Under the pieces are notes generated by a model. The model had not been told where the DNA came from. It saw only the letters and a list, made by a program, of their open reading frames with translations, and made no database searches. From positions 3,170 through 67,169 of the forward strand of contig JAKSTC010000001.1 of the NCBI GenBank assembly GCA_024402765.1: a DNA stretch of 64,000 bases, read 5' to 3'. The position numbers and the translations under genes are program-made. Positions 2,039 to 61,617 of this stretch are shown here, piece by piece (within the stretch, counting starts at the first letter, position 1; each line of letters opens with the position of its first letter). The stretch is from Alphaproteobacteria bacterium. GTDB lineage: Bacteria; Pseudomonadota; Alphaproteobacteria; Rs-D84.

Positions 2039-2085
2039 TTTTTCCCTCACACTTTTCAGGACAATTATATCATAAAAAAGACAAA

Positions 2086-2125
2086 AATAAAACCGGCATA
2101 AATGCCGGCTTAATTTTTTTTCCAA
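2086..2125. repeat. Hairpin repeat copy 1: caaaaataaaaccggcataaaTgccggc plus T-run
   Basis: Near-identical ~30-nt copy at 2283-2317. Stem ccggcat/atgccgg. Confidence 0.5.
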
Positions 2126-2130
2126 TCACA

Positions 2131-2240
2131 AAGGAACAAAAACAAGATTCCCTCGGCACTATGTGCCTGCGGGGCAACCGTAACGATTTTGCTTCATTTT
2201 ATTCGCAAAATCTACTTGTTGTCGAACCATGTCATTGTTT
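2131..2240. repeat. Dispersed structured element (attccctcggcac...cctgcggggcaaccgtaacgattt...gttgtcgaacc) fused to a 10-nt tRNA-Pro 3' fragment (aacaagattc)
   Basis: About 80% identical over the ccctcgg...gtcgaacc core to the units at 61161-61491. In both places the element begins right after a copy of the adjacent tRNA's T-loop 'gattc'. Confidence 0.55.
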
Positions 2241-2282
2241 CACAATGAACATATGTATCAAATCTGAATGCTACATCCGACC

Positions 2283-2317
2283 AAAAATAAAACCGGCATA
2301 AAAGCCGGTTTGATTTT
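2283..2317 (-). terminator. Rho-independent terminator downstream of tRNA-Pro (hairpin repeat copy 2)
   Basis: aaccggc-tttta-gccggtt followed by a T-run on the minus strand, immediately 3' of the tRNA. Confidence 0.55.
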
Positions 2318-2394
<77 letters not shown>

Positions 2395-48224: not shown

Positions 48225-48300
48225 TGGTGGCTAGGAGAGGAATCGAACCACTGACACAGGGATTTTCAGTCCCTTGCTCTACCAACTGAGCTACCTAGCC
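48225..48300 (-). tRNA. tRNA-Phe (anticodon GAA)
   Basis: Manual fold: GGCTAGG acceptor, anticodon loop CTGAAAA, T-loop TTCGATT, encoded CCA. Confidence 0.8.
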
Positions 48301-58024: not shown

Positions 58025-58252
58025 TTAAAATTCAGCATATTTTGCGAATTCTGAAAAACTCGTATTCGTAGAATTCAAGATTTTAGAAATGCTATATGTT
58101 GTTGGCCATCTTTCCTGACCATATGTTGAAAATCGTTTTGATTTGTTAAATGTCGTTGCGTCCAAACCAGACATTCTGGCCAATCCAGAAACGGAATAGC
58201 CTTTTGCCTTGGCCAAAGAATCAATTGCGCCCCAAATTTGTGAATGGTTCAT
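58025..58252 (-). CDS. Small XRE-family HTH DNA-binding protein (copy 1 of tandem pair)
   Basis: 75 aa. ...SVSGLARMSGLDATTFNKSKR fits an HTH_3 pattern. About 75% identical to the 58447 ORF. Confidence 0.5.
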   Translation of the reverse strand: MNHSQIWGAIDSLAKAKGYSVSGLARMSGLDATTFNKSKRFSTYGQERWPTTYSISKILNSTNTSFSEFAKYAEF

Positions 58253-58446: not shown

Positions 58447-58674
58447 TTATTCTTGAATATACTTAGCGAACTCTGAAAATGTAGTATTAGTGGCATTCAG
58501 AATTTTTGACAAACTCTGTGTCGAAGGCCACCTTTCCTGACCGTATTCGGTCATTCTTTTTGATTTGTTAAATGTCGTAGGGTTTAATCCAGACATCTTA
58601 GCCAAACCAGAGGCAGTCGTTCCCTTTGCTTTCGCAAAAGAATCTATCGCCCCCCACATTTGAAGGTGATTCAT
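58447..58674 (-). CDS. Small XRE-family HTH DNA-binding protein (copy 2)
   Basis: Paralog of the 58025 gene, with its own terminator. Confidence 0.5.
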   Translation of the reverse strand: MNHLQMWGAIDSFAKAKGTTASGLAKMSGLNPTTFNKSKRMTEYGQERWPSTQSLSKILNATNTTFSEFAKYIQE

Positions 58675-59118: not shown

Positions 59119-60084
59119 TTATTCAACCTCTGGGCCGGCAATAAATGAACCAGTGCCTGAATTCGTAAAGAATGTTTTCGTCACAGTATCATACATACCA
59201 ATTACACCATCACTATTGCGTTTCGCAGGGATAAGCGACATTGAATTATCTATTTTCAAATAAGCAATTCTTGTGCCATTTATAGATTGATAATCTGAAC
59301 TCTGCACAGCAAACACCCCAAAACTTGAGAAACTTGTTTCAGGCCCTCTTTTTATATCTTTTGTGGATACTCCATCACTTAAAGAAGTTCCATTTAGTGT
59401 TATTGTTCGCCAACCTGGTATAACACCATTAAAATACACAATACTACTACCAGTCCATAAACCATCATAAGAGCTCTGTGCATGAGCAAACAAAGAAAGC
59501 CTAGCACCACCTTGTTCTTGTCCATAATATGCTCCAAAAATAGCTTTAGAATTATCTATTTCACCAGGTATATAGTATTTAACTTCAAAATCACTTTCAG
59601 ATGATAGGACGTTAGCTAATCTAACAACAATTCTTGCTTTTCCATCCGTTTCAATATATTCTAACTGGGTATATTCTGCGGGCAGGATACTGGTCGCATA
59701 TCGCTCAAACACATATTCGTTCGTTGTGGCGTTCCATATCATCATATGTTTACCACTTGTCGGTAATGTCCCCAGGTTTAATTTCGTTATATCTATCATC
59801 CCTGCCAAATCTGCATTCGTTACCGCACCATCCGCCAAATGTATCGTTTCTATTGAATTATCCGCAAATAAATCTGTCCCAACCGTCGTTGCAACCACAT
59901 TCCCAGAATTATCCGTCTGTAATACCATATTTTGTGCATAATTGGCATTGTTTGCCTTTTTATCTATTTTTGCCTGAATATTATCACGCATTTCATTTAC
60001 ATATTCACTGGATGCAATATTCGCAACACAGGGTGATATAATTATAAATAAAAACGATATTACACTAAACAGATATCTAAACAT
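59119..60084 (-). CDS. Secreted phage-tail-fibre-like protein (N-terminal IASSEYVNE...KIDKK motif)
   Basis: Signal peptide. Shares its N-terminal motif and a ...ITKLNLGTLPTSGKHMMIWNATTNEYVFE block with the 60114 gene (...INKLNLPTKCASGSCMLIYNADTGNFVWE). Confidence 0.55.
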   Translation of the reverse strand: MFRYLFSVISFLFIIISPCVANIASSEYVNEMRDNIQAKIDKKANNANYAQNMVLQTDNSGNVVATTVGTDLFADNSIETIHLADGAVTNADLAGMIDITKLNLGTLPTSGKHMMIWNATTNEYVFERYATSILPAEYTQLEYIETDGKARIVVRLANVLSSESDFEVKYYIPGEIDNSKAIFGAYYGQEQGGARLSLFAHAQSSYDGLWTGSSIVYFNGVIPGWRTITLNGTSLSDGVSTKDIKRGPETSFSSFGVFAVQSSDYQSINGTRIAYLKIDNSMSLIPAKRNSDGVIGMYDTVTKTFFTNSGTGSFIAGPEVE

Positions 60085-60113: not shown

Positions 60114-60548
60114 CTAATTACCACTAACGCCACCTGTTGGCGCAGAATCGCCATTACGACCAATATTTTCCCATACAAAATTGCCAGTATCCGCATTGTA
60201 TATCAGCATGCATGACCCGGATGCACATTTTGTTGGTAAATTCAATTTATTTATTCCAACGCCATTCGCTATTTTAGTGTTTGTGACATTTGCATCTTTT
60301 ATCTTATCAGAACTGACCGCGTTATTCGCAATCATCCCCGATGCAATTTGACCCGTCTGCACCGCACCATTTGTGCCGGTCGTCACCAGTGCCTTGTTTG
60401 TCCCAGATGTAAATTTATTATCCAATTTTCCAGAAATATTATCATTCAACCCCTGTTCAACCTGACCCACGTATGCTGTGGACGCAATACCCGCAAATGA
60501 TGGCGTTGCAATTAATGCCAACATAACAATAGTTATAATGCCCTTCAT
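60114..60548 (-). CDS. Secreted phage-tail-fibre-like protein (short paralog)
   Basis: Signal MKGIITIVMLALIATPSFAGIASTAYVGQVEQ. Same family. Confidence 0.55.
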   Translation of the reverse strand: MKGIITIVMLALIATPSFAGIASTAYVGQVEQGLNDNISGKLDNKFTSGTNKALVTTGTNGAVQTGQIASGMIANNAVSSDKIKDANVTNTKIANGVGINKLNLPTKCASGSCMLIYNADTGNFVWENIGRNGDSAPTGGVSGN

Positions 60549-60807
60549 ATTCCCCTTCCTTTTTTTATATAAAAAACCACCGATTTATGTCGAGTGGTTG
60601 GAGGTTAGTAACTATCATATCTAGAAAATAGTGCCGCTTATTCAATTTATTCGCGCGCCCTCCAACCCATTTGTTGGAGTTTTTTATACTAGATATACCG
60701 GGTTACTACACCCCATCATGACAATTCATCACGACAGAATTACTATAAAACATTTTGTAAATATATGTCCAGAATATTTTAATCGCGACAAGACGCGCAG
60801 GGATTCC

Positions 60808-61047
60808 CTAAAAATGCTTTTTTATAAATTCACGCCCACACTGTGATTTTAAATATATCTCAAACTTTTTTGCTTTTTGTTCATCATCAAAAGCAAAATA
60901 ATTTTTTATACGCCAAGGACGATATTTATCTGTATGCCCAACATGTTCATAATTATGCTGTTTTAACCGTCTTTTCAAATCATCGGTATAGCCGATATAA
61001 AACTTATCTGGAAAATTTACACTTTGTAAAATATAAACATAAAACAT
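60808..61047 (-). CDS. GIY-YIG nuclease family protein (79 aa)
   Basis: FYVYILQS...FYIGYTDDLKRRLKQHN is a canonical GIY-YIG motif. Confidence 0.75.
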   Translation of the reverse strand: MFYVYILQSVNFPDKFYIGYTDDLKRRLKQHNYEHVGHTDKYRPWRIKNYFAFDDEQKAKKFEIYLKSQCGREFIKKHF

Positions 61048-61160
61048 TTTTCGCCCGTCTGCGCTGCACTTCGTTTGCTCCGTCGCGGCATCCGTTTCGC
61101 GTGATTAAAATCACATCGCCCCGTCCCGATTAATCGCGACGGAGCGAAGCGAAGACGGAT

Positions 61161-61491
61161 GGTGGACGCGCAGGGATTCCCTCGGGCACTAATAGCCCTG
61201 CGGGGCAACCGTAACGATTTGATTGCACTACGTTTATCAAATCTACTCGTTGTCGAACCTTAGGGTTCTCATCCGCTTCGTCCGGCACAAATAAAAAATG
61301 CCACTCTCGTGACATTTTTTATTTGTGGTGGACGCGCAGGGATTCCCTCGGGCACTAATAGCCCTGCGGGGCAACCGTAACGATTTGATTGCACTACGTT
61401 TATCAAATCTACTCGTTGTCGAACCTTAGGGTTCTCATCCGCTTCGTCCGGCACAAATAAAAAATGCCACTCTCGTGACATTTTTTATTTG
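61161..61491. repeat. Two tandem ~165-bp units, each beginning with a 21-nt copy of the tRNA-Lys 3' end (tggtggacgcgcagggattc) followed by a structured element and a hairpin/T-run
   Basis: Units 61161-61326 and 61327-61491 are near-identical. A third partial copy (gacgcgcagggattccct) lies at 60792-60809. The listed ORFs 61130..61315 and 61269..61481 are repeat artefacts with identical translations. Confidence 0.8.
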
Positions 61492-61567
61492 TGGTGGACG
61501 CGCAGGGATTCGAACCCTGGACCCACTGATTAAGAGTCAGTTGCTCTACCAACTGAGCTACGCATCC
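61492..61567 (-). tRNA. tRNA-Lys (anticodon CTT)
   Basis: Manual fold: GGATGCG acceptor, anticodon loop CTCTTAA, T-arm CAGGG-TTCGAAT-CCCTG, encoded CCA. Confidence 0.8.
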
Positions 61568-61617
61568 AGAACTGTGTGCAGTATTATAAAATAATTTCCT
61601 ATAAAATCAAGTTTTTA

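Follow-up and report, generated by a model that had tools for sequence, protein, structure and literature searches.

The nuclease discussed here finds its best sequence and fold matches in Slx1, At-HIGLE and the UPF0213 proteins (YhbQ, COG2827), with which it shares the catalytic Tyr, Tyr, Arg, His and Glu residues; small stand-alone UPF0213/COG2827 proteins are very common and have no established role. Its gene encodes 79 amino acids (aa) and lies in a 64,000-nucleotide (nt) stretch of DNA from an alphaproteobacterium of the GTDB lineage Rs-D84 (GenBank assembly GCA_024402765.1, contig JAKSTC010000001.1, positions 3,170 to 67,169), hereafter called the window, in which it follows a transfer RNA gene, tRNA-Lys(CTT), and two tandem repeat units. 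Unlike Slx1, the 79-aa protein has no RING or zinc finger and no Slx4-type partner, and it differs from Slx1, HIGLE and UPF0213 alike in that its gene is coupled physically to tRNA genes and a structured leader. In the open-access literature, an absence from which is no proof, no function was found for the small bacterial GIY-YIG members, nor any paper linking small GIY-YIG genes to tRNA 3' ends.

Four other types of system come close in one respect or another. Free-standing GIY-YIG homing endonucleases, such as I-TevI and the Seg proteins of T4 (e.g., SegB in the phage tRNA cluster), also have the nuclease as sole cargo, are variably present at a conserved site and are associated with tRNA genes; by comparison, the window cassette is chromosomal, lacks a DNA-binding domain and linker, and comes with a partial tRNA duplication, an RNA leader and satellites devoid of any open reading frame (ORF). 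tRNA-integrating islands and cis-mobilizable elements (CIMEs) display direct repeats from the T-loop to CCA, an intact tRNA at one end and older elements further out, whereas the family described here has no recombinase, is 100 to 1000 times smaller, occupies 22 isoacceptors and includes a mirror form that duplicates the 5' side. Miniature inverted-repeat transposable elements (MITEs), repetitive extragenic palindromic (REP) sequences and the Rickettsia palindromic elements are, like the units of the window, ORF-less, hairpin-rich modules of 75-170 nt with many copies and a presumed autonomous partner; the units differ in sitting at a strict GTTCG/A point of the T-arm (here and below, the slash marks the junction), in being flanked by direct and inverted copies derived from the tRNA and in lacking a transposase. 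Finally, Penelope-like retroelements use a GIY-YIG nuclease for insertion and generate variable, fairly long target duplications; the window elements contain no reverse transcriptase and their host is bacterial.

The best-supported description of the locus is that of a stacked array in which a tRNA is followed by two units, a nuclease cassette, a tRNA fragment and the remnant of an older element. We consider, with a probability of roughly 55%, that this array is made of small integrase-less and probably selfish elements for which the tRNA T-loop (GTTCG/A, between nt 57 and 58) is the point of insertion. Read along the minus strand, its components are as follows.

61583-61610, minus strand: promoter-like site TTGATT-16-TATAAT upstream of tRNA-Lys (10/12 consensus matches, by consensus scan only)
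61492-61567, minus strand: complete tRNA-Lys(CTT) with encoded CCA and T-loop GGTTCG/AATCC (ARAGORN; Rfam tRNA model, 74.7 bits)
61326-61491, minus strand: unit 1, 166 bp (Tandem Repeats Finder (TRF) and repeat search)
61454-61491, minus strand: terminator-type hairpin of unit 1, with A-run and T-run
61419-61453, minus strand: diverged inverted copy of the tRNA 3' end plus GGTTCGA in unit 1, 35 nt
61346-61418, minus strand: X-core of unit 1, two hairpins, 73 nt
61326-61345, minus strand: unit 1 copy of tRNA nt 57-76 (GAATCCCTGCGCGTCCACCA)
61160-61325, minus strand: unit 2, 166 bp, with the sub-parts of unit 1 offset by 166 nt
61180-61252, minus strand: X-core of unit 2
61160-61179, minus strand: tRNA-end copy of unit 2
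61048-61159, minus strand: structured leader of the GIY-YIG gene, 112 nt, directly after CCA (TCCGTCTTCGC...), with an invariant CGGATG motif
60808-61047, minus strand: 79-aa GIY-YIG nuclease gene, Slx1/UPF0213 type
60792-60809, minus strand: partial copy of the tRNA-Lys 3' end (GGGAATCCCTGCGCGTC, ~nt 57-71), overlapping the stop codon
60776-60791, minus strand: what is probably left of an older leader (GTCGCGATTAA), immediately behind the tRNA fragment and identical to 61130-61140

The original prediction, made from the sequence of the window, had recognised most of this anatomy: two units of ~165 bp, each with named hairpins and a 21-nt copy of the tRNA end, and a shorter copy of that end over the stop codon of a GIY-YIG gene presented as the only cargo of an integrase-less element. 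The units are tandem, 166 bp long and 100% identical (TRF, repeat search) and the hairpins are there; the tRNA-end copy of each unit measures 20 nt (TGGTGGACGCGCAGGGATTC, tRNA nt 57-76) rather than 21, and the shorter copy at 60792-60809 is the fourth in total. The 15-mer GACGCGCAGGGATTC is common to all four tRNA-end copies and occurs four times in the window (60792, 61165, 61331 and 61497), for a chance expectation of ~0.02, a number of occurrences reached in 0/100 shuffles. The nuclease gene is indeed the sole coding cargo, the cassette having no terminal inverted repeats, no transposase and no other ORF; the ORF list and Pfam gave no recombinase or transposase in or beside the window array, and no ORF or Pfam match to a tyrosine or serine recombinase in the fetched loci either. 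A single unit has a folding energy of -62 kcal/mol (z = -5.7). The promoter-like site at 61583-61610 is the only match placed to drive the stretch from tRNA to nuclease; a consensus scan found none between the tRNA and the ORF, and all other minus-strand matches are within the ORF or downstream of it.

At the far end of the cassette, the partial copy at 60792-60809 marks the right-hand T-loop junction, and its extra bases CCCT agree with the version of the repeat carried by the units and not with that of the tRNA. The 11-nt match of the remnant at 60776-60791 is by itself weak evidence; the same succession of a tRNA fragment and a leader start is also seen at five other loci (L005, L023, L029, L034 and L044, in our numbering of the loci retrieved from other genomes). 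Part of the X-core, its 3' half, is found behind the nuclease ORF as well in L005 and L006, and the end of the window cassette looks like a deletion derivative of that arrangement.

The tRNA link extends well beyond the window. A genome scan yielded 454 relatives of the nuclease, of which the best 80 loci by nuclease similarity, most of them from metagenome-assembled genomes (MAGs), were analysed; their hosts are mostly gut or rumen Alphaproteobacteria ('Ca. Enterousia', Rickettsiales-like MAGs), together with Thalassospira and some other phyla. Their architectures fall into six groups.

51/80 loci: same-strand tRNA with the leader starting at CCA+1 (TCCGTC, TCCGCC, TCCGCT or CCCGTC)
6/80 loci: same-strand tRNA with the leader at CCA+1 and a unit in between
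7/80 loci: mirror architecture (type II)
9/80 loci: another tRNA nearby
5/80 loci: no tRNA
2/80 loci: contig edge

A tRNA link thus exists at 64/80 loci (57 of type I and 7 mirror forms) and involves 22 isoacceptors. Several cassettes may share a genome, as in RUG13256 (L012, L026, L031 and L043), and the nuclease protein tree follows tRNA identity only in part, tRNA identities being mixed. These elements form a family that is widespread and, apparently, undescribed; its members are probably selfish.

The position of the junction is what ties the different forms together. In type I loci, a copy of nt 58-73 of the locus's own tRNA (at least 13 of 16 matches) lies downstream of the ORF in 18/65 cases, compared with 18/4006 in cross-tRNA controls; these copies begin at A58 and often extend to CCA, and next comes the original terminator (L022, L028) or an older leader start (L034, L044, L023, L029, L005). 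In type II loci, a truncated tRNA copy precedes the leader and the complete tRNA comes after the ORF. In L041, L043, L045 and L074, the last bases of the truncated copy are ...GGTTCG (nt 57, in the T-loop); in L064, L069 and L082 it stops at ...CTACGTTCG, the same GTTCG pentamer being part of the anticodon loop of tRNA-Pro(CGG). The cores of the units are placed between the tRNA's own GGGTTCG(A) and A58, with junctions reading GGTTCGA/core/AATCC in the window, CAGGGGTCCGAA/core/AATCCC in L012 (a 12-nt exact match to an atypical T-arm), GAGGGTTCGA/core/AATCC in L027 and AGGGTTCG/core/AGTCC in L209. The common junction is GTTCG/A, in the T-loop between nt 57 and 58; its use by three classes of insert is what speaks most strongly for insertion at a specific sequence or structure, and its position in the T-loop, recurring across the family, agrees with what had been proposed for the window. 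The duplicated flank amounts to 19 nt (nt 58-76) in type I cassettes, ~50 nt in units and ~37-95 nt in type II. A universal staggered cut of fixed 19-nt length was rejected, as it is contradicted by the unit repeats that include a terminator and by the 5'-side duplications of type II.

The downstream tRNA-end copies at times differ from the functional tRNA in the acceptor stem (L028 3238-3260, L005 3300-3320, L204 6285-6305), with for instance GTCATCCGCC in the L028 copy and GTCGCCCGCC in its tRNA. Such differences represent either old alleles that were kept or sequence derived from a donor, and they could be used to date or trace insertions.

Blocks of identity that run from the T-loop to CCA, and sometimes into the trailer, are reportedly the classical signature of integrases with a T-loop sublocation. 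The arrays could thus be relics of such integrases, either attL/attR blocks of tRNA islands or integrase-less CIME-type derivatives accreted in tandem with the help of a recombinase acting in trans, and the order of accretion agrees with this model. It is nevertheless improbable: none of the arrays examined has an integrase within it or next to it, the elements span only ~110-370 nt, type II duplicates the 5' side of the tRNA and one lineage uses the GTTCG of an anticodon loop. Integrase systems are, moreover, normally specific to one tRNA, while here one homologous family occurs at 22 isoacceptors, each time with the matching tRNA end.

Signs of movement come from comparisons between loci. 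L005, at tRNA-Lys(CTT), and L006, at tRNA-Lys(TTT), belong to different GTDB species and share 373 nt at 100% identity, comprising the leader, the ORF and 21 further nt; identity begins at the TCCACCA of the tRNA, which argues for a recent transfer between two tRNA genes. Among orthologous NlpD-tRNA-Lys loci, the cassette is present in the window, L001-L003 and L005, and absent in L204, L208 and L209. Decayed copies also exist: a truncated cassette in L061, and leader remnants after downstream tRNA fragments, probably including the window segment at 60776-60791. L061 and L065, both from Thalassospira, share the succession of a tRNA-Gln, a cassette and a second tRNA-Gln, after which L061 alone carries a second, truncated cassette (leader and 43 codons; L061 3453-3683 versus L065 3453-3549). 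The two were considered and rejected as a clean occupied/empty pair, the truncated 231-nt cassette replacing 97 nt. L065 comes from Thalassospira lucentensis Mv1, a culturable carrier with a complete genome.

The original prediction of an integrative or homing element at the tRNA is partly supported. In its favour are the tRNA-linked family, presence and absence at orthologous sites and the cassette shared between L005 and L006; it has to be amended as regards the 'homing-type' nuclease, which is a bare catalytic domain nearest to Slx1, HIGLE and UPF0213. The empty site that it suggested looking for in related genomes was found in part only: L204, L208 and L209 lack the cassette and carry a unit. 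The units that it took for re-insertions or duplications are not re-insertions of the nuclease element and belong to a separate ORF-less module; duplication, by crossover or slippage, most simply accounts for the second copy.

The last point follows from the close relatives of the window. An identical 79-aa nuclease is encoded on three other contigs (L001-L003) besides the source assembly; an exact-protein look-up of TatC returned the source assembly only. L002 is conspecific with the window (NlpD 96% and TatC 99% identical). The number of units is zero in L003, where the leader directly follows CCA, one in L001 and L002, and two in the window, and alignment reduces these differences to clean indels of 164-166 nt with the 20-bp repeat at their boundaries. 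Since the two window units are identical to each other and the single units of the relatives have diverged from them (94% and 90% identity), the pair in the window is most simply, and probably, the outcome of a recent event between the 20-bp repeats, either unequal crossover or slippage, rather than of two insertions. A tandem pair created by the assembler at a locus that truly holds a single unit is very improbable, even though the source is a MAG, the units do not differ at any position and the nearest assembly, L002, contains a single one: the junctions keep the register of the 20-bp repeat, independent assemblies hold one or no unit with clean boundaries, and short-read assemblers tend to collapse perfect repeats and not to expand them. 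Such an error would in any case alter copy number alone. One further difference between these strains concerns the terminator of the unit (window 61454-61491, L002 4689-4725), in which the same A/T-rich flanks enclose a wholly different stem-loop (TGTCACGAGAGTGGCA in the window, GACCGCGAAGGCGGT in L002), as if the top of the hairpin had been swapped.

The units also exist independently of the nuclease gene. L204, L208 and L209 are orthologous TatC-NlpD-tRNA-Lys loci with a unit and without the nuclease gene, laid out as the tRNA, a terminator, a body of ~110 nt, nt 58-76 and then the terminator once more, which makes a direct repeat of ~50 nt. Among the tRNAs of the fetched loci that have no downstream nuclease gene, 7/26 carry a unit (tRNA-Cys, Met, Pro and Lys). 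The window itself has a second unit-bearing tRNA, and nothing comparable to the units is found at its tRNA-Phe (48225-48300).

2318-2394, minus strand: tRNA-Pro(CGG), second unit-bearing tRNA of the window (ARAGORN)
2082-2317, minus strand: unit at tRNA-Pro, with no nuclease gene
2281-2317, minus strand: terminator hairpin of this unit
2222-2280, minus strand: inverted copy of the tRNA-Pro 3' end, with spacer
2151-2221, minus strand: X-core, the same as in the tRNA-Lys units
2141-2150, minus strand: truncated copy of the T-loop side (GAATCTTGTT)
2082-2120, minus strand: second, near-identical terminator

There are at least three types of core, X, Y and V, the X type being found at Lys, Pro and Gly tRNAs and the V type at Lys and Gly, and the same tRNA carries different types in different species. 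The consensus fold of the X-core, drawn from seven sequences, has 24 pairs, 10 of which display compensatory changes. The 16-nt X-core pattern ACGGTTKCCCCGCAGG proved too short for the metagenome collection that was scanned with it: of the 120 loci returned, 118 matched by chance and only L140 and L158 were real. In each unit, the inverted copy of the tRNA 3' end that follows the terminator is complementary to the direct copy, and pairing of the two closes the unit as a stem; the overall layout is a direct-inverted-direct arrangement of the segment formed by nt 49-76 and the terminator; one possible origin is template switching (tandem inversion duplication). A different identity for the segment after the terminator, that of a degenerate 5' half of the same tRNA within a pseudo-tRNA, was rejected: alignment scores against the own and other tRNAs do not discriminate, and an inverted 3'-end copy fits better (Ala in L015, CTGATCGGAC; Pro, TGGTCGGA; Lys, GGACG with C and not T).

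The stem raises the question as to whether the units are functional tRNA-like RNA modules, either processing or punctuation signals or genes for small RNAs ending in ACCA, acting as insulators between the tRNA and the nuclease mRNA. Each unit does provide a terminator directly after the tRNA and closes into a stem ending in ...ACCA, its hairpins covary, and units are common at tRNAs without a downstream nuclease gene (the 7/26 above). This function is rated slightly below an integrase origin and is quite unlikely. Neither ARAGORN nor the Rfam tRNA model finds a cloverleaf in the units, and only three genuine tRNAs are reported in the window; unit copy number varies from 0 to 2 among near-identical strains; core types vary at one tRNA across species and one type recurs at several tRNAs; some copies are truncated, such as that at tRNA-Pro in the window; and no promoter was detected.

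The 79-aa protein matches the Pfam GIY-YIG family PF01541 with E = 2.7e-13 and 50.5 bits (cut-off 22.6), in agreement with its initial assignment. The 27 sequences compared all have Y3, Y5, Y17, G19, R27, H31 and E63, which correspond to the GIY and YIG motifs and to the catalytic Arg, His and Glu. The AlphaFold model has a mean confidence (pLDDT) of 94.5, and by sequence and fold the closest proteins are UPF0213 BH0048, the catalytic domain of Arabidopsis HIGLE and Slx1 (1zg2, 7wme, 7cq2, 6seh), with query-normalised TM-scores of up to 0.74 and ~34% identity in the PDB. Sequence and fold searches of the PDB gave no match to I-TevI or UvrC, and the match to TIGR01453 (15.7 bits) is below the cut-off of 56. 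The protein consists of the catalytic domain alone, with no DNA-binding domain, linker, RING or zinc finger. Judged from its sequence and predicted fold, it is a bare catalytic domain of the structure-specific GIY-YIG branch and looks active. The wider protein family comprises 6,814 clusters at 50% identity with E <= 1e-10.

Between the window and L005, which occupy the same syntenic site, synonymous (dS) and nonsynonymous (dN) divergence is 1.04 and 0.055 for the nuclease and 1.37 and 0.228 for TatC, and the nuclease dN/dS of ~0.05 indicates very strong purifying selection. Recent horizontal transfer was rejected as the cause of the 90% protein identity between the two, given a dS of 1.04 comparable to that of TatC; purifying selection explains it. 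These values would suit a host function of the nuclease, as a housekeeping or repair enzyme co-transcribed with tRNAs, the partial copies then resulting from template switching at the terminator and T-arm palindromes in a rearrangement of the tandem-inversion-duplication type. A dS like that of flanking genes, the Slx1/HIGLE/UPF0213-like fold, the existence of units without nuclease whose repeat includes the terminator, and the direct-inverted-direct layout of nt 49-76 and terminator all favour such a role, as does the discussion of small COG2827 genes as repair genes in Caulobacter (PMC1839093). It is unlikely on the whole, yet it is the rival to be taken most seriously. A host function does not readily account for many paralogues per genome spread over 22 isoacceptors, for an identical 373-nt cassette at two tRNA genes in two species, for truncated or decayed copies and leader remnants, for a GTTCG junction that recurs in a look-alike anticodon loop, for homologous X and V cores at unrelated tRNAs, or for the absence of the nuclease gene from orthologous sites of related species.

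Several observations nonetheless weigh against an array of selfish elements. At the window site, the similar dS of nuclease and TatC makes the cassette look old and vertically inherited, and a selfish nuclease with a dN/dS as low as 0.05 would be unusual. We know of no sequence-specific homing member in the structure-specific GIY-YIG branch. About 70% of the cassettes have no detectable downstream tRNA copy, the length of the duplicated flank varies so that one staggered-cut mechanism cannot account for all forms, and the inverted tRNA-end copy inside the units is unaccounted for. No cleavage, excision or insertion event was seen, nor any clean pair of empty and occupied sites for the cassette itself. 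The loci were picked by nuclease similarity and come mostly from MAGs, and Cloacimonadota homologues are not located beside tRNAs. The latter (L067, L070 and L081) are 79-aa GIY-YIG proteins with no tRNA within 700 nt, in tandem pairs in L067 and L070; the tRNA link is thus specific to lineages and not universal to the protein family.

The leader that precedes the nuclease gene was aligned for 19 loci, from tRNAs for 11 different amino acids. It can adopt two mutually exclusive folds, A and B, both supported by covariation. In fold B, helix P1 (UCCGYCU with AGRCGGR) forms between the bases that immediately follow CCA and the weak Shine-Dalgarno region, which lies ~10 nt upstream of the AUG, with P2 alongside; the fold is 92% paired and has 36 compensatory cells, a score reached by 0/500 shuffles and far above slid controls. 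In fold A, the invariant ACGGAUG pairs with (CA/)UCCGU across the junction between tRNA and leader, together with UUCGC paired to GCGAA and P2' (86% paired, 19 compensatory cells, reached by 0/500 shuffles); this is also the minimum-free-energy fold of the window leader. The conserved G-U pairs indicate a structure formed by the sense-strand RNA. Searches of the leader and units against Rfam 15 returned tRNA matches only (E up to 1 in the window region and up to 0.1 at six other loci); known ribozymes, riboswitches and tmRNA were rejected as identities, none being matched in Rfam or by ARAGORN. As the weak Shine-Dalgarno region is masked by P1 and the CCA/leader junction is bridged by the alternative helix, the two folds may gate translation, and we infer that the leader is a putative cis-regulatory switch tying synthesis of the nuclease to the state of the tRNA precursor. 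Several leaders (L011, L014, L015, L018 and L021) contain a tandem duplication of the 3' module (...ACGGATGYCGCGACGGAG-hairpin-AGACGGAC), and in that of L002 (4950-4990), 30 nt have been inserted or duplicated ahead of the start codon.

How would such an array of selfish elements be built? The coding and autonomous member would be a cassette of ~370 nt, made of the 112-nt structured leader and the Slx1/UPF0213-type nuclease, which would have no promoter of its own and be read through from the tRNA promoter. The non-coding members, represented here by units with an X-core, would be two-hairpin modules of 75-100 nt inserted at the same T-loop point and behaving as satellites. Elements would survive only where a full tRNA is regenerated; only arrangements with one complete tRNA gene are seen, and each element is on that account flanked by a partial tRNA copy, which would correspond to nt 58-76 downstream of the cassette in type I (as in the window), to nt 58-76 plus the terminator in the units and, in type II, to a 5' part of the tRNA that ends in GTTCG upstream of the cassette. 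Each new insertion would be placed beside the intact tRNA, displacing earlier ones to more distal positions in which they would decay. We infer that the nuclease may nick or cut the DNA of the tRNA gene in or close to the T-loop, possibly when this DNA is extruded as a hairpin or branched, and may thereby drive insertion or homing, and that the cores may be mobilised in trans. Staggered cutting, repair synthesis, Campbell-type recombination with a captured tRNA fragment and template switching are candidate routes; with repeat lengths that vary, no single simple scheme fits all forms.

Taken further, these elements might represent a new class of bacterial mobile element, in which a bare Slx1-like nuclease, the only protein encoded, would recognise the near-universal T-arm of tRNA genes and cut it at GTTCG/A, possibly as extruded hairpin or branched DNA, repair would regenerate the tRNA, and the element would ride on tRNA transcription with a two-state leader and cores mobilised in trans. 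The alternative helix across the CCA/leader junction would then couple synthesis of the nuclease to 3' processing of the tRNA. This bolder proposal is a tentative one, and we regard it as somewhat doubtful in its entirety.

Beyond the array, the neighbouring genes show some variability of their own. Two adjacent paralogous genes for 75-aa Cro/C1-type helix-turn-helix (HTH) proteins (58025-58252 and 58447-58674, minus strand) lie just past it; the pair is 74% identical, judged from the L002 copies, and is present in L002 and not in L001. Beside the cassette, two genes on the minus strand (59119-60084, 321 aa, and 60114-60548, 144 aa) encode secreted-looking proteins with a common N-terminal region (31-34% identity), and the 321-aa protein is hypervariable between strains (50-57% identity versus 93-99% for flanking genes).

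In terms of significance, a large branch of UPF0213/COG2827 proteins is linked to one precise place in the genome, namely the T-loop and 3' end of tRNA genes, as well as to a conserved structured leader, which gives it a concrete and testable function. The arrays can also be taken for integrase att sites by genomic-island software. If the elements are mobile, theirs would be a nuclease of minimal size able to colonise essential and universally conserved genes without destroying them, a compact enzyme with a defined and near-universal target, and their activity would account for the partial tRNA copies and structured spacers found beside tRNA genes in the reduced genomes of gut Alphaproteobacteria.

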